Shown: piece after piece, positions 2,605 to 44,834 of the stretch
Numbering within the stretch: the stretch's first letter is position 1
Layout of the letters: each line of letters opens with the position of its first letter
NCBI RefSeq assembly: GCF_024502345.1
Contig: NZ_JALDNN010000003.1
Source of the DNA: Escherichia coli
Lineage (GTDB): Bacteria > Pseudomonadota > Gammaproteobacteria > Enterobacterales > Enterobacteriaceae
Reading direction: 5' to 3' (one strand)
DNA length: 64,000 nucleotides
Made by a program: the position numbers and the translations under genes
Notes under the pieces: model-generated
Told to the model about the DNA's origin: nothing
Seen by the model: only the letters and a program-made list of their open reading frames with translations
The model's database searches: none

Positions 2605-3007
2605 GTAAGCGTGCGGGCAGACCGTCTTGCGCGACTATGCCGGATGCCACCTATGCGGCAGCAGCTCTGCAATCTCACTCGCCCGCTGCGTCGGCAACCG
2701 TGTCAGCACATCCTTGAGATAGGCATACGGATCGTGCCCATTATTACGGGCCGACTGGATCAAACTCATGATCGCAGCAGCGCACTTGAGCATGCGATCC
2801 CGCGCCGAGCATTTGAGAAGGCAACGGGATGAACGCTGGCTGGATAGCCGTGGTTTTCTGGGTATGCAGCCGAATCCATTTGTGGACGAGGTTGGCATTG
2901 AGGCTGTAGCCCAAGGCGATGTTTGCGATGGAGGCACCGGGTTCAGAACACTCCTGAATGACCTGGGCCTTGAAAGATTTGCTGTAGGTACGGCGCTGAG
3001 GGGGCAT
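2605..3007 (-). mobile_element. Internally deleted IS66-family remnant (orfA-like N-terminus plus TnpC C-terminal tail and one terminal repeat)
   Basis: Minus-strand translations: ...RRTYSKSFKAQVIQECSEPGASIANIALGYSLNANLVHKWIR (orfA-like, 2744-3007) and ...SARNNGHDPYAYLKDVLTRLPTQRASEIAELLPHRW (matches C-terminus of the intact IS66-family TnpC at 39863-41455); GTAAGCGTG at 2605 lies 30 bp past the TnpC-tail stop, the same spacing as in the intact copy. Confidence 0.5.
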
Positions 3008-25065: not shown

Positions 25066-25248
25066 AAACATTCTCCTTGTCATTACATGAACACATAACA
25101 GCATAGTATTAAAAATGATTCTGTCAGTCACGACACAGATTTATGTTTTGCGAACAGGAAAGAAAGCGAGGAGCAGGGAGATCTAACCGGAAAGAGGATG
25201 CAGATGCATCCTCTGTAAGATAAAGCGAGTGGCTTTGATAAGACAGAG

Positions 25249-26070: not shown

Positions 26071-26238
26071 GAACCCTGAGCCGGGATCACATGTTCCCTA
26101 TAATGCTTAACTGACAAGCATTACGCGTATGGTGTGATTTTAGCCGAAAAACGTGATCGTTCTCCAATTTGCATTATGCTTTTTAAGCGCTCGCTGCGGG
26201 CGCGTCAAACAACTCAGTGTTCCGCGACAGGAGATCTC

Positions 26239-27069: not shown

Positions 27070-27165
27070 TCGTTGGCAGATTGTTCTACGCTGATCTTCT
27101 TTTTCCAGGGGGATGAGCGAAGCATAATTTGTGCTGCGCTGACGTTAACTTCAACAGGGAACGCT

Positions 27166-27789: not shown

Positions 27790-27830
27790 GCTTACGGACC
27801 GACGCCAGCTTGCAGCGTCGGTCGCAAGTT

Positions 27831-28637
27831 TCAATATCCCACTTTGTCGATAATAAACTGTTTACCGCAGATACCTGGATGCGGTTGCGGTAAGAATGAC
27901 TGTGCAGATAACGTCTGGTTGATGTTGTCGGCTTTCAGGGATAACTGGATCTCAGTGAGATACGCCGGATTGCCGTGGCAGCTTAGCTTCACAGCTTTGA
28001 CGTTCTCTTTGCCCCAGCTTTTGGCAACTGCGGCGTCAAATGCGTTACGGCTGACAGTTTTGCCGTAGTTTTCCGCCAGGAATTTGCCCACCTCGCTGTT
28101 CTTAACCTCATTATTCAGCCGTACCATCGTGCCAAAGTACGCGTCGGGATCAAAACCGAAACACGCGCCATGTTTGGCATACTCGTAACGTTCCAGACAG
28201 GATCTCCCTCCAGCGCCGGGCATTACGGCGCTGAGTTTTGCTGCGCTTTCCAGCGACAGCCCGGTTTCGGGGGCCGCGCATTTACGGCTGGCACGTGCTT
28301 CAGGCAGGTTGGGAATAGGGCGAGTCGCGCAGCCAAAACGCATCCAGCGGCGGTTGTCGACTCCACGGGCGGCAATGGATTTAGGCAGGCTGGGCCATAA
28401 ACCGTGAACGGTCAGGAAATCCGCTTTGTCTGCGCTCTCTTTTTGTAAACGACATTCGTCAGGCTCCTGACGATTACGCTCGTGTTGGCTCTGACAAAAT
28501 CCGGTTTGCCAGGAGAGGGCCAGCACGTAGCTGTCAAAATCAGTGTATTGTTTTGCCTGAAGTTCATCGGCCTGAGCTGCAGAAACTGGCAGCAGAAGCG
28601 CTGCCAGTAATGAAGAATAACGCCATGTTGATGTCAT
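27831..28637 (-). CDS. rna: Ribonuclease I (RNase T2 family), periplasmic
   Basis: Signal peptide then ...YVLALSWQTGFCQSQ...FLTVHGLWP...RYEYAKHGACFG...; near-full-length match to RNase I. Confidence 0.9.
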   Translation of the reverse strand: MTSTWRYSSLLAALLLPVSAAQADELQAKQYTDFDSYVLALSWQTGFCQSQHERNRQEPDECRLQKESADKADFLTVHGLWPSLPKSIAARGVDNRRWMRFGCATRPIPNLPEARASRKCAAPETGLSLESAAKLSAVMPGAGGRSCLERYEYAKHGACFGFDPDAYFGTMVRLNNEVKNSEVGKFLAENYGKTVSRNAFDAAVAKSWGKENVKAVKLSCHGNPAYLTEIQLSLKADNINQTLSAQSFLPQPHPGICGKQFIIDKVGY

Positions 28638-28747
28638 GATGATTTCGGATACTTATATAAATTCTGAATATCATCTATTTAATCATAAAAAATGCCAGTC
28701 AGGTTTAGCTGACTGGCATCATTTTCATCAGGTGTGAACCGAAATGA

Positions 28748-30211
28748 TTAGCTCCACATCGCCAGAATCGGCCAGCCGACCAGCAGAAGCATAGAGATGT
28801 AGATAACGCCGAAGATAGCACCCAGACGCCAGTAGTCTTTGGACTTCACATAACCACAGCCGTAGATGATAACGCCAGGGCCTGTTGCATATGGAGTCAG
28901 ACAGCCCATGATACCGATGGACAGTACCAGCAGGATACACAGGTGTTCCATCGGCACGCCCGGGATACCTTTACCGACAGCCAGAATAACCGGCAGCATG
29001 GTGGCAGTGTGTGCAGAAAGGCTGGCAAACAGGTAGTGAGCAAAGTAGAACACCAGCACCAGCACGATTACGGTCGCGTTAGGCGAGAAGCCTTCCAGGT
29101 GCGTGCTCATGGTGTTGGCGAACCAGTCGATGAAGCCTGAACGGGTTAAACCATTCGCCATAACGACCAGCGTGGCGAGGTTAACCAGGGTGTTCCATGC
29201 GCTGTTATAGCGGGTAATGTCTTTCCACGGTACCACATGCAGCGCCAGCATCAGGGAGACAGCAAGCAAACCCACTGCGGTTGCATCAATCAGTTTACCA
29301 CCGAAGACCCACAGGCCCAGGCTGAGCAGAACCAGACCGATCAGCGTTATCTCTTTACGGGTCAATTTACCCATGCCTTTCAGTTCATCACCGGCCCATG
29401 CGGCAACTTCAGCACTGTGAGTGACCTCTGGTTTGTACAGAACGTATGACAACCACGGAGCAACGATCAGCAAAATAATACCAACCGGCAGGAAGCTGAG
29501 GAACCATTGCAGCCAGCTGATTTGAATACCGGCAATTTTGTTGACGAATTCCAGACCCAGTACGTTTGGCGCAGCGCCGGTCACGAACATAGAGGAGCTC
29601 AGGCTGGTACTGATTACCATCATCCACATCAGGTATCCGCCGATACGGCGCGCGGAAGGATCGTTCGGGAATGATTTAAACAGCGGCGGCAGGTTTTTGA
29701 TAACCGGGAATACGGTACCACCGGTACGCGCGGTGTTAGACGGTGTAAACGGCGCCAGCAGAATGTCGATGATAACAATCGCATAGCCCAGCGTCAGGGT
29801 GCGTTTACCCATGAATTTCACCAGGAACAGCGCGATACGACGACCCAGACCGGTGACTTCATAACCCAGTGCGAAGATAAACGCACCAAACACCAACCAC
29901 ACGGTGGTGCTGGAGAAGCCCGCCAGACCCCATTTCAGCGCTTGCTTACCCGCTTTAAATGCCGGGTCGGCCAGTTCTGAAGCATCAAACAGCAGATAGT
30001 TGCTGCCGATAACGCAGATCGTTACGGCGATAAAGCTGATCGCTGTTGCCGGAATTGGCTCCAGGATCATACCGACGATCATCGCCACAAACACGGCAAA
30101 GTAGTGCCAGGCCTGTGGAGGCATTCCATCAGGGACGGGGATAAGAAACATGACGCCCATTACGACCAATGGGGCCAGTAACTTCCATATTTTATCTTTT
30201 GCTAAAGACAT
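28748..30211 (-). CDS. citT: Citrate:succinate antiporter (DASS family)
   Basis: 487 aa polytopic membrane protein; follows citG in the conserved cit cluster order. Confidence 0.9.
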   Translation of the reverse strand: MSLAKDKIWKLLAPLVVMGVMFLIPVPDGMPPQAWHYFAVFVAMIVGMILEPIPATAISFIAVTICVIGSNYLLFDASELADPAFKAGKQALKWGLAGFSSTTVWLVFGAFIFALGYEVTGLGRRIALFLVKFMGKRTLTLGYAIVIIDILLAPFTPSNTARTGGTVFPVIKNLPPLFKSFPNDPSARRIGGYLMWMMVISTSLSSSMFVTGAAPNVLGLEFVNKIAGIQISWLQWFLSFLPVGIILLIVAPWLSYVLYKPEVTHSAEVAAWAGDELKGMGKLTRKEITLIGLVLLSLGLWVFGGKLIDATAVGLLAVSLMLALHVVPWKDITRYNSAWNTLVNLATLVVMANGLTRSGFIDWFANTMSTHLEGFSPNATVIVLVLVFYFAHYLFASLSAHTATMLPVILAVGKGIPGVPMEHLCILLVLSIGIMGCLTPYATGPGVIIYGCGYVKSKDYWRLGAIFGVIYISMLLLVGWPILAMWS

Positions 30212-30236
30212 GTGTGTGATTCTCCGGAAAGGATCT

Positions 30237-31142
30237 TTAATTGTGATAATGATGAACTTGTGAAATCTGAGCTAAGAACCAGGTGACGATCAGCAGATCG
30301 GCGCAGCCTCCGGGACTGAGGTTGCGTTCAATGCACTGTTGGTCGAACTGGTGTAGGTATTCGAGATCGGCAGGGGTACGAATCCCCCCTTGCTGCATCA
30401 GGGCAGTGGCCTGCTGCTGTAGCCAACGCAGACCTTCTGCGCCGCCACGTGAAGCCACGTTGGTGTCGCCGTTGATAGACATCAGCAGCAATAAAGTGTC
30501 GAGTAACGCCAGTTCAGGGTCGCGGCCCTGAGTCAGCAGTGCGCGGTAGTGCGGCAGGGCATGCTGGATGACTAGCGGGTATCCCGCTTCGGCTTCGCCC
30601 CGTGCGCCGGTTAATCCCAGTTGCTTATAAAGACGTTGGCCTGCCGTGAGTTGTTGATTGTTCTGGCGCAGTTCGCGCTCGGTCAGACCACGGCAAAATG
30701 TCGCTGCCGTAGAGCAAATGGTTTCAGCGGTAACAGTTAGTTGGAGCTGGTGCAGGCGGCCAATGGCGGCGCACAGCAGGCCCAGAGAAAAGATGCTTCC
30801 TTTATGAGTGTTCACCCCGGCGGTGGCGCGGAACATATCAGCTTCGCAGGCCATGCCCAGCGGGCGCAGTCCTTTCAATACATCCTCAGGCGACAGCTGT
30901 GCGCTAAACGCCCCATATTCAATAAAACGTGGCAGCCAGGCCTGAATAGCCTCGGCGCTGCGATGAAAATCTTCCAGCGCCATATCTTTATGCGCGCCGT
31001 TGTTAATACGATCTACCAGACCGGGTTTGGGTGACAGGTTGACTTCAGTCAGCATGGCGCGCCACGCGAGCGTTGCGTAAGCATCAGGCAGATCCAGAGG
31101 AAGGACTGCATTATTGGTTGATGTTGCGGGAATCGGCATCAT
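30237..31142 (-). CDS. citG: 2-(5''-triphosphoribosyl)-3'-dephospho-CoA synthase
   Basis: MMPIPATS...[35 protein letters not shown]...; start overlaps the citX 3' end. Confidence 0.85.
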
Positions 31143-31665
31143 GCAGCAGTGCCTCCATCTGAGTGAGTAAGTCGGAAAGTGCGTGGGTTTTACCCCGCGC
31201 ACAGTCGGCAGCACTTTGCTCGCACAGCAGACAGCGGCGGGCAGGGAGTGCGAAATGACGCCGGGACAGAATTTCCCCTTCAGGGGTCAGGACATCGATG
31301 TCCCATAGCCGTCCCAGCGGGTGTGAATGCTCAAGTTCAATCGTGGCGAGCTTGAGGTCGTGGGCCGGAGCCTCAATAGACAAAAGACCTTCTGGACCGC
31401 TGGCAGAAACCAGCGCTGTTTGCTCCCTGACAATCCAGGCTGATTGTTCCGCCAGCGCGAGCAAGGCGGTTACGCCGTGATTAAAGATGCGACGGGTTAA
31501 TGCGCTGTCTTTAATCGGACCCGGTGCGACTACGGTGAACGAGACCAGTGGCGCAGAGTGGCGTGTCAGCCAGTCCTGTTGCCTTGCTTGTCTCTTATCG
31601 CGGCTGGCGAGCAGCTCGGGAATCGAAACCGCGTGTTGGGTGGCGAGTTCAGGGAGCAGGTGCAT
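31111..31665 (-). CDS. citX: Apo-citrate lyase phosphoribosyl-dephospho-CoA transferase (holo-ACP synthase)
   Basis: 184 aa, position between citF and citG. Confidence 0.8.
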
Positions 31666-31668
31666 GGC

Positions 31669-33201
31669 TTATTCCTTCACCTGATGCACAACGTCAATCA
31701 CTGAACCGTCGCGATAACGCACAACGGCAATCACGCGGTCAGTGAATTCGATAGCGCGTGGCTGACCGGTGAGTTGCTGTGTACGTTCGCGCAGCCATTC
31801 AATGGACACCACTTTCATACCGGCTTCTTTCAGTCGTTCTGCCAGTTCCGGACGTGCAGGGTTGACGGCGATACCATGGTCAGTGACCAGAATGTCAACG
31901 CTGGAGCCAGGGGTTACGCAGGTCAGCACGTTATCAACCAGCGTCGGGATGCGTCCGCGAACCAGCGGTGCGACGATGATGGAAAGCGCTGCGGCCACAG
32001 CCGTATCACAGTGTCCGCCGGATGCGCCTCGCAGTACGCCGTCAGAACCGGTCAGTACGTTCACATTGAAGTTGGTGTCTACTTCTAATGCGCTCAGTAC
32101 CACCACATCCAGACGGTCAACGGATGCGCCTTTTGAACCCCAGTTGGCATACTGGTTTGCACTGATTTCAATGTGGTTTGGGTTGCGGGCCAAGGACTCA
32201 GCCGCGTTACGGTCGAAGCTCTGCACGTCCAGCAGTTTGCGAATCAGGCCTTTTTCATGCAGATCCACGATGGTGGCGGTGATGCCGCCCAGCGCGAAGT
32301 CAGCACGGATATCGCGGCTGCGCATTTTGTCTTCCAGGAAACGCGTCACGGCCAGAGAAGCGCCGCCGGTGCCTGTCTGCAGTGAGAAGCCTTCATTGAA
32401 GTAGCCGGAGTTAGCAATGACCTCTGCCGCGCTACGGGCGATTAACAGTTCACGCGGGTTAGTGGTCATGCGGGTCGCATCAGCACCGATTTTGTCCGCA
32501 TCGCCGACCTGATCGATCTGCACGATCAGATCTACCTGATCCTGTGTAATGCTGGCCGGGTTATGTGGATAGGTCAGCAGTTGTTCAGTCAGCAGGACAA
32601 CCTGTTTCGCGTTTTCGGCATCTACGCGGGCATAGCCCAGTGAACCGCAGCATGCTTTACCGGTATAACCGTTGGCGTTACCAAACTGGTCGCAGGACGG
32701 TACGCCGAGAAACGCCACATCAATGCTGAGTTCGCCACTTTGTACCAAGTGTACACGTCCACCGTGGGAGTGAATCTGTACCGGTTCGGCCAGCAGGCCA
32801 CGGGAGATCTCTTCCGCCAGCGGGCCACGCAACCCGGAGGTATAAATACGGCTGACCACGCCCTGACGGATGTGCTCAACCAGCGGAGCATGGCAATCGC
32901 TCAGAGAGCTGGAGGCCAGCGTCAGATTTTTAAAGCCCATACTGGCGATGGCGTCCATCACCAGGTTAATCGTCAGATCGCCACCGCGAAAAGCGTGGTG
33001 GAAAGAGATGGTCATGCCATCCTGTAAACCTGAACGACGAATGGCGTCTTCCAGGTTAGCGCACAGCTTTTTGTCGCGCGGTTTTTGCGCCTGTAGTTCT
33101 ACTTTTGCGGTGCTCTGATAAGCGGAAAGCTCACTTTCTGCATGACGGCTCCAGGTCGCCACGCGATCCTGGCGTTGAGACTGTTCGATTTTCTGCGTCA
33201 T
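31669..33201 (-). CDS. citF: Citrate lyase alpha subunit (citrate CoA-transferase)
   Basis: 510 aa; conserved cluster position. Confidence 0.9.
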   Translation of the reverse strand: MTQKIEQSQRQDRVATWSRHAESELSAYQSTAKVELQAQKPRDKKLCANLEDAIRRSGLQDGMTISFHHAFRGGDLTINLVMDAIASMGFKNLTLASSSLSDCHAPLVEHIRQGVVSRIYTSGLRGPLAEEISRGLLAEPVQIHSHGGRVHLVQSGELSIDVAFLGVPSCDQFGNANGYTGKACCGSLGYARVDAENAKQVVLLTEQLLTYPHNPASITQDQVDLIVQIDQVGDADKIGADATRMTTNPRELLIARSAAEVIANSGYFNEGFSLQTGTGGASLAVTRFLEDKMRSRDIRADFALGGITATIVDLHEKGLIRKLLDVQSFDRNAAESLARNPNHIEISANQYANWGSKGASVDRLDVVVLSALEVDTNFNVNVLTGSDGVLRGASGGHCDTAVAAALSIIVAPLVRGRIPTLVDNVLTCVTPGSSVDILVTDHGIAVNPARPELAERLKEAGMKVVSIEWLRERTQQLTGQPRAIEFTDRVIAVVRYRDGSVIDVVHQVKE

Positions 33202-33210
33202 TTTTTTGCC

Positions 33211-34119
33211 TTATTCTTCGCGAATGCCGGAAAGTTCTGCACGGGAGATAACCAGAAGGGCGCGCTCGATAACCGGGCTGTCGACCATTTTGCCGTTCAG
33301 GGAAACCACTCCACGACCTTCGCGGGCAGCGGCTTCAGCGGCTTCTACGACCAAACGGGCGTGAGCCAGCTCTTTGCGCGTCGGGGCGTACAGGTTATGC
33401 AGGAGTTCGATCTGGCGCGGGTTGATGAGCGACTTGCCGTCAAAACCCAACTGCTTGATGTGTGCGGCTTCGTGCAGGAAACCTGCTTCGTTGTTGGCAT
33501 CGGAATACACGGTGTCGAACGCCTGAATACCGGCAGAACGTGCAGCCTGCAAAATAGAGCAGCGGGCAAACAGCAGTTCAGTACCCTCCGGCGAGCGTTC
33601 AGTGCGCAGGTTACGCACATAATCTTCAGCACCCAGAGCAATACCGATCAGGCGCTCGGAAGCGTGGGCAATTTCTACCGCACGGGTAATGCCTAACGGC
33701 GACTCAATGGCGGCTAACAGGCCGGTGCTGCCGGGTTCACGGCCACAGGCGTTCTCGATGCGCAGAATTTCACTTTCGATGTCGATGACATCCTGCGCGG
33801 TATCGGTCTTCGGTAAACGTACGATGTCAGCACCGCCGCGTACCACGGCTTCAAGGTCGTTGATGCCCCATTCGGAGTCGAGGGCGTTTACACGCACGAT
33901 AGTTTCAACGTCGTGATACAGCGGATGCTGCAGCGCGTGGTACACCATGCGGCGAGCGGTATCTTTTTCACGCAACGCGACGGAGTCTTCCAGGTCGAAC
34001 ATCAGTGCATCTGCCGGGTAGATGAACGAGTTGCTGACCATGGCGGCATTGGCACCCGGTACGAACAACATGCTGCGGCGAGTACGGGTTTTACGTTGTT
34101 GCAAAGATGCGGAAATCAC
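33211..34119 (-). CDS. citE: Citrate lyase beta subunit (citryl-CoA lyase)
   Basis: GTG start preceded by GGAGGA and overlapping the citD stop (GTGA); [30 protein letters not shown]... Confidence 0.9.
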
Positions 34120-34412
34120 TGGCAATCCTCCCATGGCAGTGCCGGAATACCGCCAGCGCGGGCCAGTAGTGCTTCCAGTCGCGCACGTAAAATGCAGTCC
34201 AGTGCGCCTTTATCATCAACATTTAATTGCACGCCGCGTACGTTGTAGCGGGACAGAACGTCCAGGATGGTGGTCCGAATGGCATCACCGAACTGTTTTT
34301 CGACGCTACTGTTAACCTGCAGGTCAATATCCTGCGAATCGAGTGGGGCGATGCGAATCATCACATCACCGGACTCGAGTGTGCCTGCGACGGCTGCCTG
34401 GTTTATTTTCAT
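34116..34412 (-). CDS. citD: Citrate lyase acyl carrier protein (gamma subunit)
   Basis: 98 aa, [24 protein letters not shown]... Confidence 0.9.
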
Positions 34413-35485
34413 TTTTCACCTGTTGCTAATGCGGGGGTATTTTGGCGGACTGCCGCACCCGATGAGGCTCGTTCAACCATGCTTTGCAGATAGTGCAGCG
34501 TGGCGTCAGGGACCAGGGATGCGATAGCCGTGAGATCTTTTTTAACCAGCAGCTTGCGCACCCAGGAGGCGGAAATCGGCATCTCCTGGAAGCACAGCCG
34601 CTCAATTTCCACCAGTTCAATCGGTGGGGCGGGAAGCGTTGGGGTCTCCAGCCAGTAGCGCATATCGTTGTTGTACTGGGAGGTGACGGAGCAATACGGC
34701 TCGGTACCGACGAAACGATGTGTAACGCCGAGAGCCGGTGCCAGGTACTGGCGGAAGATTTTCAGGTCTATTTCGGTGTAGCAGTGGTTAATAACGCTCT
34801 GCTCTTTGATGAAGTAGCACGGGAACGTGGCGCGGGAAATGATGTATTCCGAACCGCGATGCACGGTTAAACGTGGAATATCTTTTGTCCCTTTAAGCAC
34901 CAGATCCAACCGGTCTTCATACGGAAACCGTGAGGTATCCTCTTTGACCAAAAACAGATGCAGCCAGTCACATTGTGCGGCCGCCTGTTGGATCAGAAAA
35001 CGATGTCCGTTGGTGAAGGGGTTGGCGTTCATGACGATGCAACCAATTTTTTTCCCTTCACGACGCTGTTTTGCCAGAGATTCAGCGTAACGTTTCAGAC
35101 GCGTGGTGCTGTTTTCCATCAGCACCATAATGCCGGGAACGCTGGTCAGCGTAGAAAAGCCACACTGTTTAAACAGCGATTCGTACTCGGTTTTGGTATA
35201 GATGAAGAGGTGCGTACAGTGGCGCTCATAGGCGAGGTTGATTAACTCGGTCGCCAGCGTCAGCGCTAAGCCTTCGCCCCGTACGGATTCGCAGATGGCG
35301 ACACATTTTATAATATTCCCAGCGATACCGCCGCAGGCAATCAGGCGGTCGTCTCGGGTGACGGTGATAAATACTTCGACGGTGGTGTCAACGCTCAAAT
35401 CATTCTCTTTCAGAAATTGCGTGATAGCCGCCATCTTTTTATTTTCTGAGCGTTTAACTTGCGTGAATATATTATTACCGAACAT
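34409..35485 (-). CDS. citC: [Citrate (pro-3S)-lyase] ligase
   Basis: 358 aa, N-terminal acetyltransferase-like and C-terminal nucleotidyltransferase-like regions ([16 protein letters not shown]). Confidence 0.85.
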
Positions 35486-35875
35486 AGTGAATAGAGCCCC
35501 GATGCTATATTTGTTACTGGGTTTCTGTTTTTGTTGCTCTGCTTAGCAACCTGATAACGTTTTGTTTGCAATTGAAGGGAATGGTTTTTTATTACGGAGT
35601 ATTTCTTTTTTTCCCTGCTGCATACATCGTAAGGGGTATTTTGGAGGTAATTTTTGATTTATTTCACAATAAGTTAGAAGGTTTTAATGTGTTTTATGGT
35701 TTTAAGTTTTTTAATTAATTTAACCTCGAAATAGCGTGTGGTTTTAATTTGTTTAATTGATTTAAAGTGGGGAATCTGCAACGATCTTGTTTTATACACG
35801 TAACGTGTAAATAAAACATTTCTATTACAACTACAATGAGAAATAAGTTTCGGGCAACGTGGATGAGGAAGATAT
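35486..35875. promoter_or_regulatory. Divergent AT-rich control region between citC and citA
   Basis: 390-bp AT-rich spacer between divergent operons; cit operons are controlled from this region in enterobacteria. Confidence 0.45.
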
Positions 35876-37537
35876 ATGGCTGAGCAGAAAAATAAAACAC
35901 GGTTTCCTTTTTTCCGCAGCCTGGCGTTTCCTTTACGCATCTTTCTGCTTATTTTGGTCGTTTCTGTTTTTATCATCGCCGCCCTGGCACAATACTTTAC
36001 CGCCAGCTTTGAAGATTATCTGGCCGCGCATGTCCGCGATATGGCAATGAACCAGGCCAAAATCATCGCCTCTAACGACAGTATCATCACGGCAGTTAAA
36101 CATCGTGATTACAAGCGTTTGGCGACGATTGCCGACAAACTGCAGAGCGGAACTGACTTCGACTATGTGGTTATCGGGGATACCAACTCCATTCGTCTAT
36201 ATCATCCGAACCCGGAAAAGATTGGCTACCCGATGCAGTTCACCAAACCCGGTGCGCTGGAAAAAGGGGAAAGCTACTTTATTACCGGTAAAGGGTCCAT
36301 CGGGATGGCAATGCGCGCTAAAACGCCCATCTTTGATGACGATGGCAAAATCATTGGCGTAGTCTCAATTGGTTATCTGATCAGCAAAATCGATAGCTGG
36401 CGATCGGATTTCTTACTCCCGATGGCCGGTGTGTTTATCTTGCTGTTGTTGGTTCTTATGCTGCTATCCTGGTTTTTCGCTGCCCATATTCGTCGGCAGA
36501 TGTTGGGTATGGAACCGAAACAAATTGCGCGGGTGGTACGTCAGCAGGAAGCGTTGTTCAGCTCGGTATATGAAGGATTGATTGCCGTGGATCCTGATGG
36601 ATATATCACCGCAATAAACCGCAGTGCGAGGAAAATGCTGGGGCTGTCTTCACCAGGGCGAAAGTGGCTTGGAAAACCGGTGAGTGAGGTGGTTCAGCCA
36701 GCGGACTTTTTCACCCAACAGATTGCGGAAAAACGACAGGATGCGATGGTAAACTTTAATGGCCTGAGCGTTATCGCCAACCGTGAAGCGATTCGCTCTG
36801 GTGACGAACTGCTTGGGGCAATCATCAGTTTTCGTAGTAAAGATGAAATTGCTACCCTTAATGCGCAATTAACGCAGATCAAACAGTATGTAGAGAGCCT
36901 GAGAACGCTGCGTCATGAGCACCTGAACTGGATGTCGACCATCAATGGCCTGCTGCAAATGAAAGAATATGACAAGGTTCTGGCCATGGTGCAGGGAGAA
37001 TCCCAGGCGCAACAGCAACTGATTGACAGCCTGCGTGGCGCGTTTGCCGATCGTCAGGTCGCCGGTCTGTTGTTTGGCAAGGTTCAGCGCGCACGGGAAC
37101 TGGGCCTCACCATGACTATCGTTCCGGGGAGCCAACTGCATCAACTCCCCGAGGGGCTGGATAGCACAGAGTTTGCAGCAATTGTTGGCAATCTGCTTGA
37201 TAATGCATTTGAAGCGAGCTTACGCACCCAGCAAGGCAACAAGGTCGTAGAGCTCTATTTGAGCGATGAAGGGGATGACGTGATCATCGAAGTTGCCGAT
37301 CAGGGATGCGGTGTGCCGGAAGCATTGCGTGAGAAAATATTTGAACAGGGTGTGAGCACCCGTACCGATGAACCAGGTGAACATGGCATCGGTTTGTATC
37401 TGATTGCAAGTTATGTGAGGCGCTGTGACGGGGTGATTACGCTCGAAGATAACTCCCCTTGCGGTACCTTATTTTCTTTATTTCTTCCGAAAGTGAAAAA
37501 AAATAATGACGGAACCATTAACGCTGTTGATCGTTGA
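35876..37537 (+). CDS. citA: Citrate-sensing sensor histidine kinase
   Basis: Two TM helices flanking a periplasmic sensing domain, PAS, HisKA and ATPase (GIGLYL) regions. Confidence 0.9.
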   Translation: MAEQKNKTRFPFFRSLAFPLRIFLLILVVSVFIIAALAQYFTASFEDYLAAHVRDMAMNQAKIIASNDSIITAVKHRDYKRLATIADKLQSGTDFDYVVIGDTNSIRLYHPNPEKIGYPMQFTKPGALEKGESYFITGKGSIGMAMRAKTPIFDDDGKIIGVVSIGYLISKIDSWRSDFLLPMAGVFILLLLVLMLLSWFFAAHIRRQMLGMEPKQIARVVRQQEALFSSVYEGLIAVDPDGYITAINRSARKMLGLSSPGRKWLGKPVSEVVQPADFFTQQIAEKRQDAMVNFNGLSVIANREAIRSGDELLGAIISFRSKDEIATLNAQLTQIKQYVESLRTLRHEHLNWMSTINGLLQMKEYDKVLAMVQGESQAQQQLIDSLRGAFADRQVAGLLFGKVQRARELGLTMTIVPGSQLHQLPEGLDSTEFAAIVGNLLDNAFEASLRTQQGNKVVELYLSDEGDDVIIEVADQGCGVPEALREKIFEQGVSTRTDEPGEHGIGLYLIASYVRRCDGVITLEDNSPCGTLFSLFLPKVKKNNDGTINAVDR

Positions 37538-38186
37538 GGATGAAACGCTACTGGCGGAAATGCATGCTGAATATATCCGCCATATACCCGGTTTCAGCCA
37601 GATATGGCTGGCGGGTAATCTTGAGCAGGCGAGGATGATGATTGAGCGTTTTAAGCCCGGTCTGATACTGCTCGATAACTACTTGCCGGACGGCAAGGGA
37701 ATTACGTTGCTGCATGAGCTGACCCAGGCGCGCTATCCGGGCGGCGTAGTGTTTACCACGGCGGCCAGCGATATGGAAACGGTCTCCGAGGCTGTGCGCA
37801 GCGGTGCGTTTGATTACCTGGTCAAACCCATTGCCTACGAGCGGCTGGGGCAGACCCTGACGCGTTATCAACAACGTCGACGCATGTTGGCGGGGAATGA
37901 CAGCGCCAGCCAAAAGCAGATTGATGAAATGTTTAATGCCTACGCGCGGGGCGAACCGAAAGGGGATTTACCGACTGGGATTGATGCGTTAACACTAAAT
38001 GCAGTGTTGAAATTATTCGCCGACCCGACGGTACACCATACTGCGGAAACGATCGCCCAGGCGCTTACCATCAGCCGAACGACTTCCAGACGCTACCTGG
38101 AGTACTGTGCCAGCCGTCATTTGATTATTGCGGAGATTATTCACGGTAAGGTAGGCAGGCCGCAGCGTATTTATCATGGCGGCTAA
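37506..38186 (+). CDS. citB: Response regulator of the CitA/DpiB two-component system
   Basis: Start overlaps the citA 3' end; MTEPLTLLIVEDETLLAEMHAEYIRHIPGF... Confidence 0.9.
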   Translation: MTEPLTLLIVEDETLLAEMHAEYIRHIPGFSQIWLAGNLEQARMMIERFKPGLILLDNYLPDGKGITLLHELTQARYPGGVVFTTAASDMETVSEAVRSGAFDYLVKPIAYERLGQTLTRYQQRRRMLAGNDSASQKQIDEMFNAYARGEPKGDLPTGIDALTLNAVLKLFADPTVHHTAETIAQALTISRTTSRRYLEYCASRHLIIAEIIHGKVGRPQRIYHGG

Positions 38187-38200
38187 ATGCTGATTTCTGA

Positions 38201-38290
38201 CGTAGGCCGGATAAGATGTTTTAGCATCGACATCCGGCAACGGTGCGGTTTAAATGCCGGATGCGGCGTAGATGCCTAATCCGGCCTACA
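38201..38290. repeat. REP/BIME-type enterobacterial extragenic palindromes
   Basis: GTAGGCCGGATAAG...CATCCGGC and GCCGGATGCGGCGTAGATGCCTAATCCGGCCTAC match the REP consensus. Confidence 0.7.
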
Positions 38291-38302
38291 TTTCACTGAG
38301 TA

Positions 38303-39044
38303 TCAGCCGCCAACGACGGCTGAAGAAGAACCTGGTACCATCACTTCAGTTGCGATAATCACAACCAACAGCCCAACCAGAACCGGAACCGAGGTACGTT
38401 TCACCACTTCGAACGGAGAAATCTTTGCCATACCTGCGACAGCGACAACCACGCCGGAGACCGGGGAGATTGTGCGCCCAAGGTTTGACGCCTGCAGCAT
38501 CGGGATAACAAGGTAAGCCGGGTTAATGCCGGAAGAATGCGCCAGCTTAGGGATCATTTCAACGAAGGCGTAGAACGGGGCGTTACCGGAACCCGTAGTC
38601 ATTGCCGCCAGCATAGTCAGGATCACCAGCACCATCATCAAGATAATGCTCGCTGAACCAAACGAGGTGGCGATAGAAATCAGACTCTGAATAAAGCCGA
38701 TTGTGCTCAGACCCTGGGCAAAAACACCCGCAGCGACTAACAACATCACCACGTTAGCAAAGGCATCCGCCATGCCACGGTAAGCGACTTCCAGACCAGA
38801 GAAAACCTTTTGGGTGTTGAACCCACGTACGAACTCCAGAATAGCCGCGATGAGCATGCACAGAACCAGAATCGTAATGATGTGCAACTGCGGGCCCCAT
38901 TTACCATCAAAAATCAGGACGCCAACGATCGGGGTAAACGGCAGAATGGCGTAAAATGACGGGGCAGTCGTGGTGATTTCAGCCACATCTAACATTTCAT
39001 GAGAAATGTTCTCTTTTTTATCCAGAAAACGCTGCCAGAAAAAG
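38303..39044 (-). pseudogene. dcuC: Anaerobic C4-dicarboxylate transporter DcuC, C-terminal about 245 codons, 5' end removed by IS26
   Basis: Translation matches the C-terminal half of DcuC and runs into the IS26 left repeat at 39045. Confidence 0.8.
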
Positions 39045-39832
39045 GGCACTGTTGCAAATAGTCGGTGGTGATAAACTTATCATCCCCTTTTGCTGATGGA
39101 GCTGCACATGAACCCATTCAAAGGCCGGCATTTTCAGCGTGACATCATTCTGTGGGCCGTACGCTGGTACTGCAAATACGGCATCAGTTACCGTGAGCTG
39201 CAGGAGATGCTGGCTGAACGCGGAGTGAATGTCGATCACTCCACGATTTACCGCTGGGTTCAGCGTTATGCGCCTGAAATGGAAAAACGGCTGCGCTGGT
39301 ACTGGCGTAACCCTTCCGATCTTTGCCCGTGGCACATGGATGAAACCTACGTGAAGGTCAATGGCCGCTGGGCGTATCTGTACCGGGCCGTCGACAGCCG
39401 GGGCCGCACTGTCGATTTTTATCTCTCCTCCCGTCGTAACAGCAAAGCTGCATACCGGTTTCTGGGTAAAATCCTCAACAACGTGAAGAAGTGGCAGATC
39501 CCGCGATTCATCAACACGGATAAAGCGCCCGCCTATGGTCGCGCGCTTGCTCTGCTCAAACGCGAAGGCCGGTGCCCGTCTGACGTTGAACACCGACAGA
39601 TTAAGTACCGGAACAACGTGATTGAATGCGATCATGGCAAACTGAAACGGATAATCGGCGCCACGCTGGGATTTAAATCCATGAAGACGGCTTACGCCAC
39701 CATCAAAGGTATTGAGGTGATGCGTGCATTACGCAAAGGCCAGGCCTCAGCATTTTATTATGGTGATCCCCTGGGCGAAATGCGCCTGGTAAGCAGAGTT
39801 TTTGAAATGTAAGGCCTTTGAATAAGACAAAA
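39045..39832 (+). mobile_element. IS26, copy 3, positions 1-788 (interrupted by an IS66-family insertion)
   Basis: Left repeat at 39045; sequence matches copies 1 and 2 up to ...AGACAAAA and then switches to GTAAGCGT... Confidence 0.9.
39108..39812 (+). CDS. tnpA: IS26 transposase Tnp26 (intact)
   Basis: Same translation as the other copies. Confidence 0.95.
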   Translation: MNPFKGRHFQRDIILWAVRWYCKYGISYRELQEMLAERGVNVDHSTIYRWVQRYAPEMEKRLRWYWRNPSDLCPWHMDETYVKVNGRWAYLYRAVDSRGRTVDFYLSSRRNSKAAYRFLGKILNNVKKWQIPRFINTDKAPAYGRALALLKREGRCPSDVEHRQIKYRNNVIECDHGKLKRIIGATLGFKSMKTAYATIKGIEVMRALRKGQASAFYYGDPLGEMRLVSRVFEM

Positions 39833-39862
39833 GTAAGCGTTAAGTGAGCGCCGTATTGACGG

Positions 39863-41455
39863 CTATTTATTGGTGAGATCTACGTTCCATGGCAGCAGTT
39901 CGGCCACTTTGTTGATGGGCCACTCCGGCAATACGCTCAGGATATGGCGAAGGTAACCCTCTGGATCGATACCGTTCAGCCTGCACGTTCCGATCAGACC
40001 ATACAGCAGGGCACCACGTTCACCACCATGATCACTGCCGAAGAAGATGTAGTTTTTCTTGCCCAGACAGACCGCTCGTAGCGCGCGCTCAGCAGCGTTA
40101 TTATCCGGCTCTGCCAGACCATCATCGCAGTAGTAACACAGGGCATCCCACTGGTTCAGTGCATAAGCGAACGCCTCGCCTAACCGGGATTTTTTCGACA
40201 GAGTGGCTCTTTTCTCCACCAACCAGTCATGCAGGGATATCAGCAACGGTTTACTTCGGGACCGTCTGGCGGCCAGCCGCTGAGATGCCGGAAGGCCGCG
40301 TATTTCCTCTTCTATCGCGTATAACTCACTGATGCGCTTCAGAGCCTCCTCTGCTGTGGCCGTCCGGGTGCTGATATAGACGTCATGGATTTTGCGCCGC
40401 GCATGAGCCCAGCATGCCGCTTCTGTCAACGGGCCACCTTCACGCTCTGCGCTGAACAACCTGTCGTACCCTGCGAAGGCATCTGCCTGCAGCACGCCAT
40501 GATAGTGCCGAAGATGTTGCTGAGGGTGTTTCCCCTGTCGGTCCGGTGAGAAGGCGAACCATGCCGCTGGCGGATCTGATGAACCCGCGCTTCTGTTATC
40601 ACGGACATATGTCCAGATACGCCCGGTTTTCGTCTTCTTTCTGCCCGGCGCCAGCACGGGCACCGGAGTGTCATCCGTATGCAGTTTGCGGCAGTCCATC
40701 ACGTAGTGGTAGAGGGCTTCATCCAGCGGGGCCATTAACCGGCAGCACGCATCCACCCAGTTGGAGAGCAGCGCACGACTCAGATCCACACCCTGACGGG
40801 CAAAGATTTCGCACTGGCGATACAGCGGCAGGTGTTCACAGTATTTGGCCGTTAACACGCGGGCCAGCAGACCCGGCCCGGCGATGCCCCGGTCGATAGG
40901 ACGTGAGGGCGCTGGCGCTTCAACGACGCAGTCGCATCGGGTACAGGCCTTTTTCACTCTGACCGTGCGGATCACTTTCAGGGCGCTGGAGACCAGCTCC
41001 AGTTGCTCCGCGCTGACTTCGCTGAGATAGGCCATATCACTACCGCAACCAGGACAGCTGGTTTCAGCTGGCTCCAGTCTGTTTATTTCGCGGGGAAGAT
41101 GTTCCGGTAACGGGCGACGATGACGGGACTGGCGCAACTGACGCGGAACCTGCTGATCATTGTCCCGGCCGTTGTAACGATCGCTTTGCTGCTCCTGCTG
41201 TTTCAGCAGGGCTTCGGCTTCTTCGACCTGCCGGCGTAGCTTTTCTGAACGGGTACCGAACAGCATTCGGCGCAGTTTTTCTATCTGAGCCCGCAGATAT
41301 TCTATTTCACGCTCTTCGTTCTCTATTTTCTCTTCTGCGCGGGCCAGCGCCGAACGCAGGAACGACTCAGTCTCAGCAACGAGACTGAGCTGGCTGTCTT
41401 TCTGGCGAAGCGCGTCTTCCAGCGCAGCGATACGGGCGAGATAGTCCTGACTCAT
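39863..41455 (-). CDS. tnpC: IS66-family transposase TnpC
   Basis: 530 aa with N-terminal coiled coil, zinc-finger region and DDE core. Confidence 0.85.
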   Translation of the reverse strand: MSQDYLARIAALEDALRQKDSQLSLVAETESFLRSALARAEEKIENEEREIEYLRAQIEKLRRMLFGTRSEKLRRQVEEAEALLKQQEQQSDRYNGRDNDQQVPRQLRQSRHRRPLPEHLPREINRLEPAETSCPGCGSDMAYLSEVSAEQLELVSSALKVIRTVRVKKACTRCDCVVEAPAPSRPIDRGIAGPGLLARVLTAKYCEHLPLYRQCEIFARQGVDLSRALLSNWVDACCRLMAPLDEALYHYVMDCRKLHTDDTPVPVLAPGRKKTKTGRIWTYVRDNRSAGSSDPPAAWFAFSPDRQGKHPQQHLRHYHGVLQADAFAGYDRLFSAEREGGPLTEAACWAHARRKIHDVYISTRTATAEEALKRISELYAIEEEIRGLPASQRLAARRSRSKPLLISLHDWLVEKRATLSKKSRLGEAFAYALNQWDALCYYCDDGLAEPDNNAAERALRAVCLGKKNYIFFGSDHGGERGALLYGLIGTCRLNGIDPEGYLRHILSVLPEWPINKVAELLPWNVDLTNK

Positions 41456-41485
41456 GACCCCATTTATAATGCGGTCATGCGCTTT

Positions 41486-41836
41486 TTACAACATCGTCAG
41501 TGAGTTAAGGCGTGCAGTTTTAGGTTGCCGCCAGTCCAGCTTATCGAGGAGCATGGCGAGTTGTGAGCGGGTGATGGCGATTTTGCCGTCGCGTACAGCA
41601 GGCCAGACGAACTGTCCCTCTTCCAGACGTTTGGTAAACAGACACAGACCGTCAGCATCAGCCCAGAGGATCCTCACGGTGTCACCTTTACGACCACGGA
41701 AGATAAACAGGTGGCCGGAGAACGGATTGTCATCAAGAACATGCTGGACCAGTTCGCCCAGACCATTGAAGGACTTACGCATATCGGTGACCCCGGCAAC
41801 CAGCCAGATACGAGTGCCTGACGGTAAGGGTATCAT
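41486..41836 (-). CDS. tnpB: IS66-family accessory protein TnpB (orfB)
   Basis: MIPLPSGTRIWLVAGVTDMRKSFNGLGELVQHVL...; ATGA overlap with orfA. Confidence 0.8.
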   Translation of the reverse strand: MIPLPSGTRIWLVAGVTDMRKSFNGLGELVQHVLDDNPFSGHLFIFRGRKGDTVRILWADADGLCLFTKRLEEGQFVWPAVRDGKIAITRSQLAMLLDKLDWRQPKTARLNSLTML

Positions 41837-42240
41837 CGGCTCCTCCCGGTCAGCTCGCGGATCAGCGTTTTCAGAAGTGCAGGTGATAAATCCCCGGACA
41901 GACGCAGGCTGGCACCGCCGACAGTCACCTCGCATGTCATGGCCTCGCGGCAGGCTGGAGCGGCGGGTTCATAGTGCGGCTCAGCATGGTGTGACAGGGC
42001 CATATCAGGCAGGACAACGGGGATAACAGAGTCTTGCTCTCTGATTGACCGTTGTATTTCATCGGGCAGAAGATGTCTGTAACGCTGGCGCCAGGTAAAC
42101 AGCAGATTGTCATTAATTCCATTATCCCGCGCCAACCGGGCAACACAGGCTCCAGGCTGATATGACTTTTCGACGAGAGCCAGCTTAAAGTCCATTGAGT
42201 AGGACGCCCGCGCCCTGCGGGGCTGAAGAGTGTTTGACAT
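41833..42240 (-). CDS. IS66-family accessory protein TnpA (orfA)
   Basis: 135 aa, HTH-containing N-terminus. Confidence 0.75.
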   Translation of the reverse strand: MSNTLQPRRARASYSMDFKLALVEKSYQPGACVARLARDNGINDNLLFTWRQRYRHLLPDEIQRSIREQDSVIPVVLPDMALSHHAEPHYEPAAPACREAMTCEVTVGGASLRLSGDLSPALLKTLIRELTGRSR

Positions 42241-42334
42241 TGATAGAGTCCATTAACGTTAATAAGAGGACTCTATCATCGTCAATCGTTAGTAATCGCA
42301 ACAGGCGGCAGTGGCTTGACGCTTACAGACAAAA

Positions 42335-42366
42335 GGCTGCCTCATCGCTAACTTTGCAACAGTGCC
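42335..42366 (+). mobile_element. IS26 copy 3, terminal 32 bp including the right inverted repeat
   Basis: GGCTGCCTCATCGCTAACTTTGCAACAGTGCC resumes the IS26 sequence after the duplicated AGACAAAA. Confidence 0.9.
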
Positions 42367-44834
42367 GTCGCTGACATCGTGCAACGACACAGAGCTAACG
42401 CTTAGGGTGTCATTTCGCCCTCAGCCGGAACCGACCCCAAGGACAGCGACTCTCAGTGATGGAGCACCTAAAAAGAGGCCCTGTCACTATCAGCGGCCCC
42501 GCATTCACTGAAGCACTTGAACGTTACACTCGCCTGCGCAGCCTGGAATTTTCCTGCCTGAATTTCACTGGGCTGCCTGCCATACAGCTCCGCAACCTGG
42601 CACGCTATGCCGGAATGGCATCGGTGAAATATATCAGCAGAATGCCAGAAGAACGGCGGCTGGCTATCCTTACCGCGTTCGTGAAAGCGCAAGAAATCTC
42701 GGCGCTGGACGAGGCCGTTGACGTGCTGGATATGCTGATCCTCAATATTACCAGGGAGGCGAAGAAAACCGGGCAGAAAAAGCGACTTAGGACGCTCAAG
42801 GATCTTGACCGTGCGGCGTTGTTGCTGGCGCGGGCATGTGCACTTTTACTTGATGAAGATACTGGTGATGATTTGCTGCGAAAGACCATATTCAGCAGTG
42901 TACCTGTCGCCAGACTGGCAGAGTCAGTGGAAAAAGTGAATGAACTGGCCCGCCCCCAGGATACAAACTTTCAGGATGAAATGGTGGAGCAGTACGGACG
43001 GGTAAGGCGTTTTTTGCCCGCACTACTGCGCGATCTGCACTTCCGGGCGGCCCCAGACGGTGAACATACCCTCGCGGCCATCCATTACCTGGCAGAGCTA
43101 AACGGCTCGAAAAAACGGATCCTGGACGATGCACCTGAGCATATCATTTCAGGCCCTTGGAAACGCCTGGTGTACGATGCTGAAGGTCGGATACAGCGAG
43201 CGGGTTACTCGTTGTGTCTGCTGGAGCGACTTCAGGATGCGCTACGCCGTCGTGACATCTGGTTGGAAAACAGCGATCGTTGGGGTGATCCGCGCCAAAA
43301 ACTTCTTCAGGGGGAGGAATGGCAGGCGCAGCGGGTTCCAGTGTGCCGGGCATTGGGTCACCCCACCAATGGCAGTAAAGCATCGGTGCAATTGGCAGCA
43401 CGGTTGGATGAAACCTGGAAAACGGTGGCATCACGTTTTGACCGCAATACCGCCGTAGACATCTGCAATGAAGGTAAACATCCTTCGCTGACCATCAGCA
43501 GCCTGGATAAATTGGATGAGCCACCGGCGCTGATACGACTGAGCAGCCGAGTCAGACAATTGCTCCCACCCGTTGACCTGACAGAACTGTTGCTTGAGAT
43601 TGACGCCAGAACGGGTTTCACCCGTGAATTCAGCCATGTCAGCGAGTCAGGTGCCCGCGCGCAGGATCTGCATATAAGCCTGTGTGCGGTGATGCTGGCT
43701 GAGGCCTGCAATATCGGACATGAGCCGCTGATCAAGCACAATATCCCTGCACTGACCCGCCATCGCCTGAGCTGGGTGAAACAGAACTACATCCGAGCAG
43801 AAACGCTGGTCAGCGCCAATGCGCGGCTGGTTGATTTTCAGTCCTCGTTAGCGTTGGCAGGATACTGGGGTGGCGGTGAGGTGGCCTCCGCTGATGGTAT
43901 GCGTTTTGTCACACCAGTGAAAACGGTGAATTCTGGCCCCAACAGAAAATACTTTGGTTCAGGGCGCGGCATTACCTGGTACAACTTTGTCTCTGACCAA
44001 TATTCGGGTTTTCATGGCATAGTGATCCCTGGAACGCTGCGGGATTCCATTTTTGTGCTGGAGGGACTACTTGAGCAACAAACGGGACTAAACCCGGTTG
44101 AAATCATGACGGACACAGCAGGTACCAGTGACATTATCTTTGGCTTGTTCTGGCTACTGGGATACCAATTTTCACCTCGTCTGGCGGATGCTGGTGAGGC
44201 GGTGTTCTGGCGGGCTGACAAAGCAGCGAATTACGGGGCGTTGGACGAACTGGCTCGGGGTTGTGTTGACCTTTCTAAAATCGAAAGCCACTGGGATGAG
44301 ATGATGCGGGTTGCAGGTTCGCTGAAGCTGGGCACAATTCATGCGTCAGAACTCATTCGATCGCTATTGAGAAGTACCCGACCGTCAGGGCTTGCTCAGG
44401 CAATAATGGAGGTCGGAAGAGTTAACAAGACACTGTATCTTCTCAACTATATTGATGATGAGGACTATCGCCGCAGGATCCTAACACAGCTTAACCGGGG
44501 CGAAGGTCGCCATGCCGTGGCAAGAGCCATTTGCTACGGTCAGCGTGGTGAGATCAGAAAACGTTACCGCGAGGGGCAGGAAGATCAGTTGGGTGCGCTG
44601 GGTCTGGTGACAAACGCAGTGGTGCTGTGGAATACGCTTTATATGCAGGAAGCCTTGTCGCACCTGCGTAGCACTGGGGAAGGGCCAGAAGATGAACATA
44701 TCGCGCGGCTTTCGCCTCTGATGCATGGTCATATCAACATGCTGGGACATTATACGTTCACACTACCGGAGGATATTATGAAGGGGGAATTGAGGCCGTT
44801 AAATCTCAATTTAAACAATGAATTACCTCCTTAG
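42367..44834 (+). pseudogene. tnpA: Tn3-family transposase TnpA, lacking roughly the first 200 codons (truncated at IS26)
   Basis: Translation aligns with Tn3-family TnpA from about residue 210 to the C-terminus (...LGALGLVTNAVVLWNTLYMQEAL...MLGHYTFTLPE...); in-frame stop 30 bp from the IS26 boundary. Confidence 0.8.

Follow-up and report, generated by a model that had tools for sequence, protein, structure and literature searches.

An IS66-family element nested within IS26

The window analyzed here, a 64,000-nucleotide stretch of an Escherichia coli contig (NZ_JALDNN010000003.1), contains a copy of IS26 (copy 3) in which the last 32 bp are separated from the transposase gene by a 2494-bp insert. 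This arrangement raises the question of how the insert came to be there and whether the interrupted IS26 can still function. A sequence-only reading of the window had described an IS66-family element (orfA, orfB, tnpC) located 32 bp from the right end of IS26 with an 8-bp duplication, and its coordinates and sequences all held up (Table 1). The nested insertion is real but ordinary.

Table 1. Features of the interrupted IS26 copy, the inserted element and the flanking genes
Feature	Position	Strand	Details
IS26 copy 3, left 788 bp	39045-39832	+	GGCACTGTTGCAAA at 39045; Pfam DDE_Tnp_IS240, E=2.4e-48
IS26 left 14-bp terminal repeat	39045-39058		
tnp26, intact	39108-39812	+	Counterpart in NZ_LR890350.1 annotated WP_001067855.1, IS26 family transposase
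Left target-site duplication copy, AGACAAAA	39825-39832		IS26 nt 781-788
Complete 2494-bp IS66-family insertion sequence (ISEsp1-like)	39833-42326		Genes on -
tnpC-proximal terminal inverted repeat, GTAAGCGTTAAGTGAGCGCCG	39833-39853		21 nt, 76% complementary to 42306-42326
tnpC, 530-aa DDE transposase	39863-41455	-	Pfam and NCBIfam; WP_039264109.1 in other records
tnpB, 116-aa IS66 accessory protein	41486-41836	-	Pfam and NCBIfam
tnpA, 135-aa helix-turn-helix accessory protein	41833-42240	-	Pfam and NCBIfam
tnpA-proximal terminal inverted repeat	42306-42326		Reverse complement GTAAGCGTCAAGCCACTGCCG
Right target-site duplication copy, AGACAAAA	42327-42334		
Displaced last 32 bp of IS26	42335-42366	+	Right 14-bp repeat TTTGCAACAGTGCC at 42353-42366
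dcuC, 5'-truncated, adjoining IS26 left end	38303-39044	-	Pfam DcuC positions 215-460 of 461 only; listed by RefSeq under the matching segment
Tn3-family transposase gene, right of IS26	42456-44834	+	Lacks ~188 N-terminal codons; NCBIfam transpos_Tn3 positions 189-954 of 954; also Pfam DDE_Tnp_Tn3

When the insert and one copy of the direct repeat that bounds it were removed, and positions 39045-39832 were joined to 42335-42366, an 820-bp IS26 was obtained. The rebuilt copy has the length, the 14-bp terminal repeats and the single 234-aa Tnp26 of IS26, and it differs from the uninterrupted copies at 15569-16388 and 21743-22562 by 1 and 2 nt, respectively. Its Tnp26 is identical to that of both of these copies. 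With the insert in place, the nested composite of IS26 and the IS66-family element is 3322 bp long. No 8-bp duplication surrounds IS26 copy 3 itself (AGAAAAAG on the left and GTCGCTGA on the right). A missing duplication is usual for IS26 copies after conservative reactions or deletions and does not affect their identity.

The probability that an exact flanking repeat (8 of 8 positions) would arise by chance is ~1.5e-5, and the repeat falls exactly at the ends of the inserted element, the boundaries of which are set by 11 independent copies. Nominally, the repeat is 9 nt long (AGACAAAAG), as the insert happens to begin with the base that comes next in IS26; comparison with the sequences of other copies of the element settles the boundaries, giving a duplication of 8 bp and GTAAGCG as the terminus. 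The insertion site (IS26 nt 788/789) lies inside an AT-rich, 38-bp non-coding spacer that separates the stop codon of tnp26 (IS26 nt 768) from the 14-bp terminal repeat at the right end (nt 807-820), and therefore tnp26 and both terminal repeats were left undamaged.

Identity of the inserted element and evidence for recent activity

The sequence of the insert is that of an intact member of the IS66 family, with the transposase, accessory genes, termini and 8-bp duplication characteristic of it. The tnpC product matches Pfam DDE_Tnp_IS66 (PF03050; E=5.6e-97) over profile positions 1-283 of 284, as well as zf-IS66, LZ_Tnp_IS66 and DDE_Tnp_IS66_C, and scores 450 bits against NCBIfam transpos_IS66 (NF033517; cut-off, 180). 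TnpB matches Pfam TnpB_IS66 (PF05717; E=5.9e-36) and NCBIfam IS66_TnpB (118.5 bits; cut-off, 50), and TnpA matches Pfam HTH_Tnp_1 (PF01527; E=2.3e-12) and NCBIfam IS66_ISRel24_TnpA (80.6 bits; cut-off, 74); the NCBIfam models for the two accessory proteins are NF033819 and NF047595, both above cut-off. The start of tnpB overlaps the stop of tnpA as ATGA, and 30 nt lie between the end of tnpB and the start of tnpC. The ends of the element are GTAAGCGTTAAG and, reverse-complemented, GTAAGCGTCAAG, with GTAAGCG at the start, and they form an imperfect inverted repeat in which 16 of 21 bases are complementary.

The prototypes IS66 and IS679 have imperfect terminal repeats beginning with GTAA. They also have the gene order tnpA-tnpB-tnpC and an 8-bp duplication, as does the window element, and both of these characteristics have been described for IS66 (PMC6778807). 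The prototypes have another host range, and their sequence likeness to the window element is at the family level only.

The NCBIfam search names the element to family level only. Nucleotide similarity indicates that it is probably ISEsp1, a name that comes from the label of one depositor and not from an ISfinder reference sequence; by the ISfinder convention, a name is given at ≥95% nucleotide identity to the reference sequence. The copy so labeled, on pUR-EC3.2 (MZ382871.1), shares 99.9% identity with the window element from end to end and has the same gene order and size; it is 2 bp longer and is annotated as 'ISEsp1 family transposase / ISEsp1 accessory protein / IS66 TnpB'. ISEsp1 has been named beside mcr-9 (PMC10940312, PMC13049778, PMC8252965), without sequence details.

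ISKox1 and ISEc23, which belong to the IS66 family and have the same three-gene layout, occur on similar plasmids, often beside IS26. They are insertion sequences other than the window element, with IS26 beside rather than around them; the ISKox1 and ISEc23 records are ~84 to 91% identical to the query, an average that includes near-identical IS26 pieces. The termini of the insert had also been likened to that of an IS66 remnant at position 2605 of the window. The likeness extends to the family-wide GTAAGCG and to the same layout from the end to the 3' end of tnpC, but the remnant is not a close relative. Its terminus (GTAAGCGT) is followed on the - strand by a C-terminal IS66-family transposase domain (2781..2656; Pfam DDE_Tnp_IS66_C, E=1.8e-16) that has 43% amino acid identity over 42 aa.

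Eleven further copies of the element were found at distinct sites; nine are identical, one differs by 1 nt and one is 2 bp longer. All 11 are flanked by their own, different, perfect 8-bp duplications. Near-identical copies, each with its own perfect duplication, suggest that the element has been recently active. The copies are located on E. coli chromosomes and on plasmids of Klebsiella, Enterobacter and Citrobacter, and one strain carries the element on both its chromosome and a plasmid. The GC content of the duplications is 30%, versus 53% for the window. A twelfth copy (L003), which differs by 7 nt, has flanks without a duplication. Full-length copies that are 100% identical were present in at least 16 plasmid records, and the best match was at least 99% in 103 plasmid records. 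In the species-representative genome collection, the terminus of the element gave only two matches, both in elements that are related but not the same, one in Lelliottia (84% over 2 kb) and one in Pantoea (89% over 100 bp).

Expected activity of the interrupted IS26

The closest experimental analogue of the interrupted copy is IS26::catA1, a synthetic construct with an insert at IS26 nt 775/776 that keeps 44 bp of the right end (Harmer & Hall 2021; PMC7885326). In reactions with IS26, this construct formed targeted conservative cointegrates at the wild-type frequency (5.5e-4), and 30 of 30 cointegrates had formed at the left end (PMC7885326). In both IS26::catA1 and the composite, foreign DNA lies between the end of tnp26 and the right repeat, both repeats and tnp26 are intact, and a long identity on the left is paired with a short identity on the right. 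The composite is natural, whereas IS26::catA1 was engineered, and the analogy may be quantitatively imperfect: the passenger here is a 2.5-kb autonomous insertion sequence convergent with tnp26 rather than the 0.7-kb catA1 resistance gene, and the right end retains 32 bp here, compared with 44 bp in IS26::catA1.

By analogy with this construct, the interrupted copy is expected to be active through its left end and to have lost right-end reactions, and it is most likely that the insertion leaves IS26 largely functional. The sequence-only reading had suggested that the insertion may impair the mobility of this copy, which would hold for the right end, where the loss of reactions is expected, but not for the left end, which is expected to be active with tnp26 and both repeats intact. 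Copy-in movement of the whole 3.3-kb composite may also be possible.

It seems unlikely, although it deserves consideration, that the 2.5-kb separation and convergent transcription block assembly of Tnp26 on both ends, in which case the IS26 copy would be a passive homology patch. High-frequency IS26 reactions require active Tnp26 from both partners (PMC4196232), so that lower expression of Tnp26 would matter. The tnpABC genes read toward the 3' end of tnp26, and no same-strand hairpin was called after tnpC; the sole terminator-like hairpin past the end of tnpC (39850-39863) was assigned to the + strand, opposite to that of tnpABC. A promoter scan of the region revealed no sigma-70-like promoter, and terminator-like sites in the region were no more common than in shuffles. 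The fact that the composite is known from a single genomic location would also fit a disabled copy. However, the insertion has spared tnp26, the left end that precedes it and both 14-bp repeats, Tnp26 recognizes and binds the 14-bp terminal repeat itself (PMC8477213), and IS26::catA1 had no drop in targeted cointegration frequency. A copy that remains active through its left end is thus the preferred reading.

Occurrence of the composite and alternative origins

A search of other plasmids for the same insertion in IS26 gave one match, plasmid 2 of E. coli MSB1_9D (NZ_LR890350.1), which is the only public record in which the composite is 100% identical. This plasmid is related to the window yet distinct, with two whole segments that differ, and the possibility that the window is simply NZ_LR890350.1 was rejected on these grounds. 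In searches of plasmids, E. coli genomes, species-representative genomes and metagenome contigs, the composite turned up at no other location, and with a single known location there is therefore no sign that the composite has moved as a unit. In exact searches, neither the left junction (species-representative genome collection) nor the right junction (metagenome contigs) had a match. PLSDB yielded no ancestral plasmid in which the flanks of the composite enclose an uninterrupted IS26, and the empty-site query (dcuC'-IS26-Tn3' without the insert) matched no record with ≥80% coverage.

IS26 frequently truncates neighboring elements, and on several plasmids it adjoins other IS66-family members (ISEc23, ISKox1), as might be expected if recombination or deletion had brought two IS26 fragments beside a pre-existing IS66-family element with no insertion. 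Such an origin is highly improbable for the composite, in which the two pieces of IS26 add up to exactly one full copy (788 + 32 = 820 bp) and have in common the 8 bp expected of a target duplication; in the cases of adjacency, a complete IS26 lies beside the IS66-family element and not around it. Likewise, H32, H33, H34 and H69 were rejected as independent insertions of an IS66-family element into IS26, as they have a complete, uninterrupted IS26 beside ISKox1, ISEc23 or a second copy. Among multi-piece matches there was no evidence for a recurrent insertion hotspot in IS26. Both elements are multi-copy repeats of the type at which assemblers fail, but a wrong joining of IS26 and IS66 repeats is hardly credible when both junctions are identical in a separately deposited, complete plasmid that differs from the window in two segments, and when an artefact would neither create a perfect duplication of 8 bp, the usual length for the element, nor restore IS26 exactly.

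Proposed origin and implications

The composite is very probably the product of a single transposition of the IS66-family element into the IS26 spacer, with a copy of IS26 that, by analogy, would be competent at its left end. An active IS66-family element would have transposed once into an IS26 copy that an IncHI1-type plasmid already carried, landing in the AT-rich 38-bp spacer that extends from the tnp26 stop to the right terminal inverted repeat, and the resulting 3322-bp composite would since have been passed on to at least two plasmid variants. If IS26::catA1 is an appropriate guide, the interrupted IS26 would still make normal Tnp26 and keep both 14-bp terminal repeats, so that Tnp26-dependent targeted conservative cointegration and RecA recombination could still proceed through the 788-bp left part. 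Right-end reactions, which need extended identity, would be lost, as IS26 has been cut to 32 bp on that side, and any copy-in event would carry the entire 3.3-kb composite. A more tentative proposal, on which we would not yet rely, is that the composite could be a natural counterpart of IS26::catA1, that is, a functional, end-biased IS26 whose reactions are confined to the left end and that carries a passenger insertion sequence.

The insertion alters no resistance or virulence gene, and its significance lies mostly in correct annotation. Its two exact breakpoints provide a rare, easily typed junction that marks a plasmid lineage. The current activity of the IS66-family element appears to extend to clinical Enterobacterales, including the chromosome and plasmid pair in one strain. 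According to a published rule, IS26 undergoes targeted conservative recombination only when the end that reacts has extended identity, and the composite may serve as a natural test of this. If it is indeed a counterpart of IS26::catA1, a second autonomous insertion sequence would ride on IS26 cointegration, and the spread of the IS66-family element would be coupled to the high-frequency IS26 pathway.

Structure of the interrupted IS26

A reading of 38700-42700 and a script check placed the left terminal repeat of IS26 copy 3 (GGCACTGTTGCAAA) from 39045 and its inverted partner up to 42366, and found the octamer AGACAAAA twice (39825-39832 and 42327-42334), with 2,494 bp between the two copies (39833-42326). 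This insert starts with GTAAGCGTTAAG and ends, reverse-complemented, with GTAAGCGTCAAG. Joining 39045-39832 to 42335-42366 produced an IS26 of exactly 820 bp, 1 nt different from the intact copy at 15569-16388 and 2 nt from that at 21743-22562. The nucleotide difference is silent, and the transposase Tnp26 (234 amino acids) is the same in all three copies. With the insert conceptually excised, copy 3 has the length, Tnp26, and 14-bp terminal repeats that define IS26. The octamer corresponds to IS26 nt 781-788, between the stop codon of tnp26 at nt 768 and the right terminal repeat at nt 807-820; 32 bp of IS26 has thus been displaced. These coordinates and the rejoined IS26 agree with the sequence-only reading, which had placed an IS66-family element 32 bp before the right end of IS26 with an 8-bp duplication. 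A repeat search reports 9 nt at the IS26/insert junctions, since the insert begins with a G that is also the next base of IS26; comparison with other copies of the element fixes the repeat at 8 bp, and their boundaries are the same as those of the 2,494-bp insert originally proposed.

The insert carries three intact genes on the minus strand, as anticipated from the sequence (orfA, orfB, and tnpC), and their profile matches agree. tnpC also has the IS66 zinc-finger, leucine-zipper, and C-terminal domains and scored 450 bits against NCBIfam transpos_IS66 (cut-off, 180). tnpA and tnpB overlap at ATGA, and 30 nt separates tnpB from the tnpC start. GTAA-type termini are a feature of the IS66 family, whose prototypes were reportedly described by Han et al. 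2001 and Gourbeyre et al. 2010. The insert ends form a 21-nt inverted repeat with 16 of 21 bases matched. Members of the family have tnpABC and produce an 8-bp duplication (PMC6778807). The insert is an IS66-family member, with each testable defining feature present.

Features of the window
Feature	Coordinates	Strand	Description
tnpA	42240-41833	-	135 aa; HTH_Tnp_1; NCBIfam IS66-like TnpA above cut-off
tnpB	41836-41486	-	116 aa; TnpB_IS66, E=5.9e-36
tnpC	41455-39863	-	530 aa; DDE_Tnp_IS66, E=5.6e-97
Inverted repeat	42234-42285		18 nt, 89% complementary, 16-nt spacer, covers the start codon of tnpA and sequence upstream of it; may serve as an operator or regulatory hairpin
Heat-resistance island	1-15500		clpK/ftsH/yfdX/hdeD-GI, "transmissible locus of stress tolerance" type
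Tn7-like TnsE gene	529-2151		within the island
IS66-family remnant	2605-3162		end fragment of a distantly related element, in high-GC DNA
Segment between IS26 copies 1 and 2	16389-21741		resolvase, GstA-like glutathione transferase, GloB-like hydrolase, truncated IS91/ISCR-like transposase, CI-like repressor
Chromosomal-type segment between directly oriented IS26 copies 2 and 3	22563-39044		dmsB/C-like genes, uspG, rnk, rna, citT, citGXFEDC, dpiBA, truncated dcuC; Citrobacter-type protein accessions
Tn3-family transposase gene	42367-44834		lacks first ~188 codons; starts 90 bp right of IS26 right end (42366); presumably cut by IS26
SulP transporter/ars/ISNCY segment	53388-60556		7.2 kb; often carried by IncHI-type plasmids of Enterobacter, Salmonella, and Klebsiella

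Occurrence of the composite

The search for the same insertion in IS26 of other plasmids, proposed in the sequence-only reading, returned one record. Among plasmid records, only NZ_LR890350.1 (E. coli MSB1_9D plasmid 2; IncHI1A; 300,631 bp; rectal swab, Australia) matched the 3,322-bp composite of IS26 and nested element in one piece at 100% identity, and a search of 5,426 complete E. coli genomes gave no other such match. Positions 1-15500 and 21742-53387 are collinear with this plasmid, with six mismatches in the latter stretch. The window is not the same plasmid, as the segment between IS26 copies 1 and 2 and the SulP transporter segment differ completely; these are therefore two distinct plasmid variants with both junctions in common. 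Misassembly of the junctions is very unlikely, given that the two variants share them, that the duplication is present, and that IS26 is restored exactly.

The exact junctions were not found in a species-representative genome collection or in metagenome contigs, and no plasmid carried an uninterrupted IS26 with flanks matching those of copy 3. Other multi-piece matches were rejected as repeat events, IS26 lying merely beside a different IS66-family element, and nothing in them pointed to a recurrent hotspot. The composite was not found at a second location in plasmids, E. coli genomes, species-representative genomes, or metagenome contigs.

The heat-resistance island is 100% identical in NZ_LR890350.1 and several ~304-kb E. 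coli plasmids. Between IS26 copies 1 and 2, NZ_LR890350.1 has instead a 5.1-kb segment with a ferritin-like protein, IS5, and a RelE/ParE toxin-antitoxin pair, a difference that looks like an IS26 translocatable-unit exchange. The SulP transporter segment replaces a 4-kb IS3/ISNCY segment of that plasmid. The chromosomal-type segment is an IS26-bounded unit with citrate-fermentation genes on a plasmid; no duplications flank this unit.

Other copies and identity of the element

A megablast search of the element against 72,556 plasmids gave 103 plasmid records with a best match at least 99% identical. At least 16 copies were full length and 100% identical, in Klebsiella, Enterobacter, Citrobacter, and E. 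coli plasmids. Twelve further copies were fetched with flanks, and 8 bp was taken from each side. Eleven occupied different sites, each with its own perfect 8-bp duplication (GCATATGA, AAAGTAAT, ATGATATT, GATTAACT, GTCGACTC, TTGAAAGC, GGATATGC, GTTCATCA, GCAAAAAA, GTTAATTC, and AATCATAA); nine were identical to the window copy, one differed by 1 nt, and one was 2 bp longer. The twelfth (L003, seven differences) had no duplication in its 8-bp flanks. Near-identical copies at different sites, each with its own duplication, identify the insert as what appears to be a recently active IS with the boundaries first proposed. The GC content of the duplications (30%, versus 53% for the window) suggests that the element prefers AT-rich targets, consistent with insertion into the AT-rich IS26 tail.

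A second 100%-identical copy, with duplication AAAGTAAT, is in the MSB1_9D chromosome (L007; NZ_LR890349.1, 52391-54885), which fits recent transposition within that lineage, in either direction. Its setting is a cryptic-prophage-like region (ypjK, yfjS, and a WYL-domain gene). The K. pneumoniae plasmid pKSB1_9E_1 (Australia; isolate label similar to MSB1_9D) also carries an identical copy. Many plasmids (search matches H70-H88, e.g., NZ_CP008824.1) carry a 99.6%-identical variant matching element positions 1 to ~2333 only; the last ~160 bp (tnpA 5' end and adjacent terminus) is different or missing, and the PLSDB gene table, itself incomplete, lists tnpB alone. This variant may be a truncated or hybrid IS.

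The element is probably ISEsp1, a name that stands as a lead: one depositor labeled a 99.9%-identical copy (MZ382871.1) "ISEsp1 family." ISEsp1 has been named beside mcr-9 (PMC10940312, PMC13049778, PMC8252965). ISKox1 and ISEc23 were rejected, as records carrying them match at only ~84 to 91% identity.

The termini had also been said to resemble those of the remnant at 2605. There, a GTAAGCGT terminus is followed by a minus-strand open reading frame ending in an IS66 C-terminal domain (PF13817, E=1.8e-16), with 43% amino acid identity to the TnpC of the insert over 42 residues; no nucleotide-level similarity between remnant and insert was found. The resemblance holds at the family level (same terminus and end-to-gene layout) but not as a close relationship.

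Expected consequence for IS26 function

tnp26 and both 14-bp terminal repeats, which Tnp26 specifically binds (PMC8477213), are intact; only the distance from gene to right repeat is altered. For targeted conservative cointegration at high frequency, each of the two IS26 partners must supply active Tnp26 (PMC4196232). A synthetic IS26 with an insert at nt 775/776 that keeps 44 bp of the right end (IS26::catA1) formed cointegrates with R388::IS26 at the wild-type frequency (5.5e-4), and the 30 cointegrates that were mapped had all formed at the left end, owing to the need for extended identity at whichever end reacts (PMC7885326). The natural composite shares this design, with 788 bp on the left and 32 bp on the right, although its passenger is larger and convergently transcribed. 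By this analogy, IS26 copy 3 would be expected to participate normally via its left end and in RecA recombination over 788 bp and to have lost right-end reactions; copy-in movement, should it occur, would have to take in the entire 3.3-kb unit. The earlier suggestion that the insertion may impair mobility thus finds only partial support. A simple promoter and terminator scan of the region was uninformative: no sigma-70-like promoter was seen, and terminator-like sites were no commoner than in shuffles.

Nesting of one IS in another is commonplace, and a gene-by-gene annotation of the present case already exists in a public RefSeq record. Four papers were located that mention IS26 being interrupted or inserted into, and neither their titles nor their abstracts name an IS66-family element. 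The composite may be a functional left-end-only IS26 derivative with another IS as passenger. If so, it would confirm in a natural setting the "identity at the reacting end" rule.
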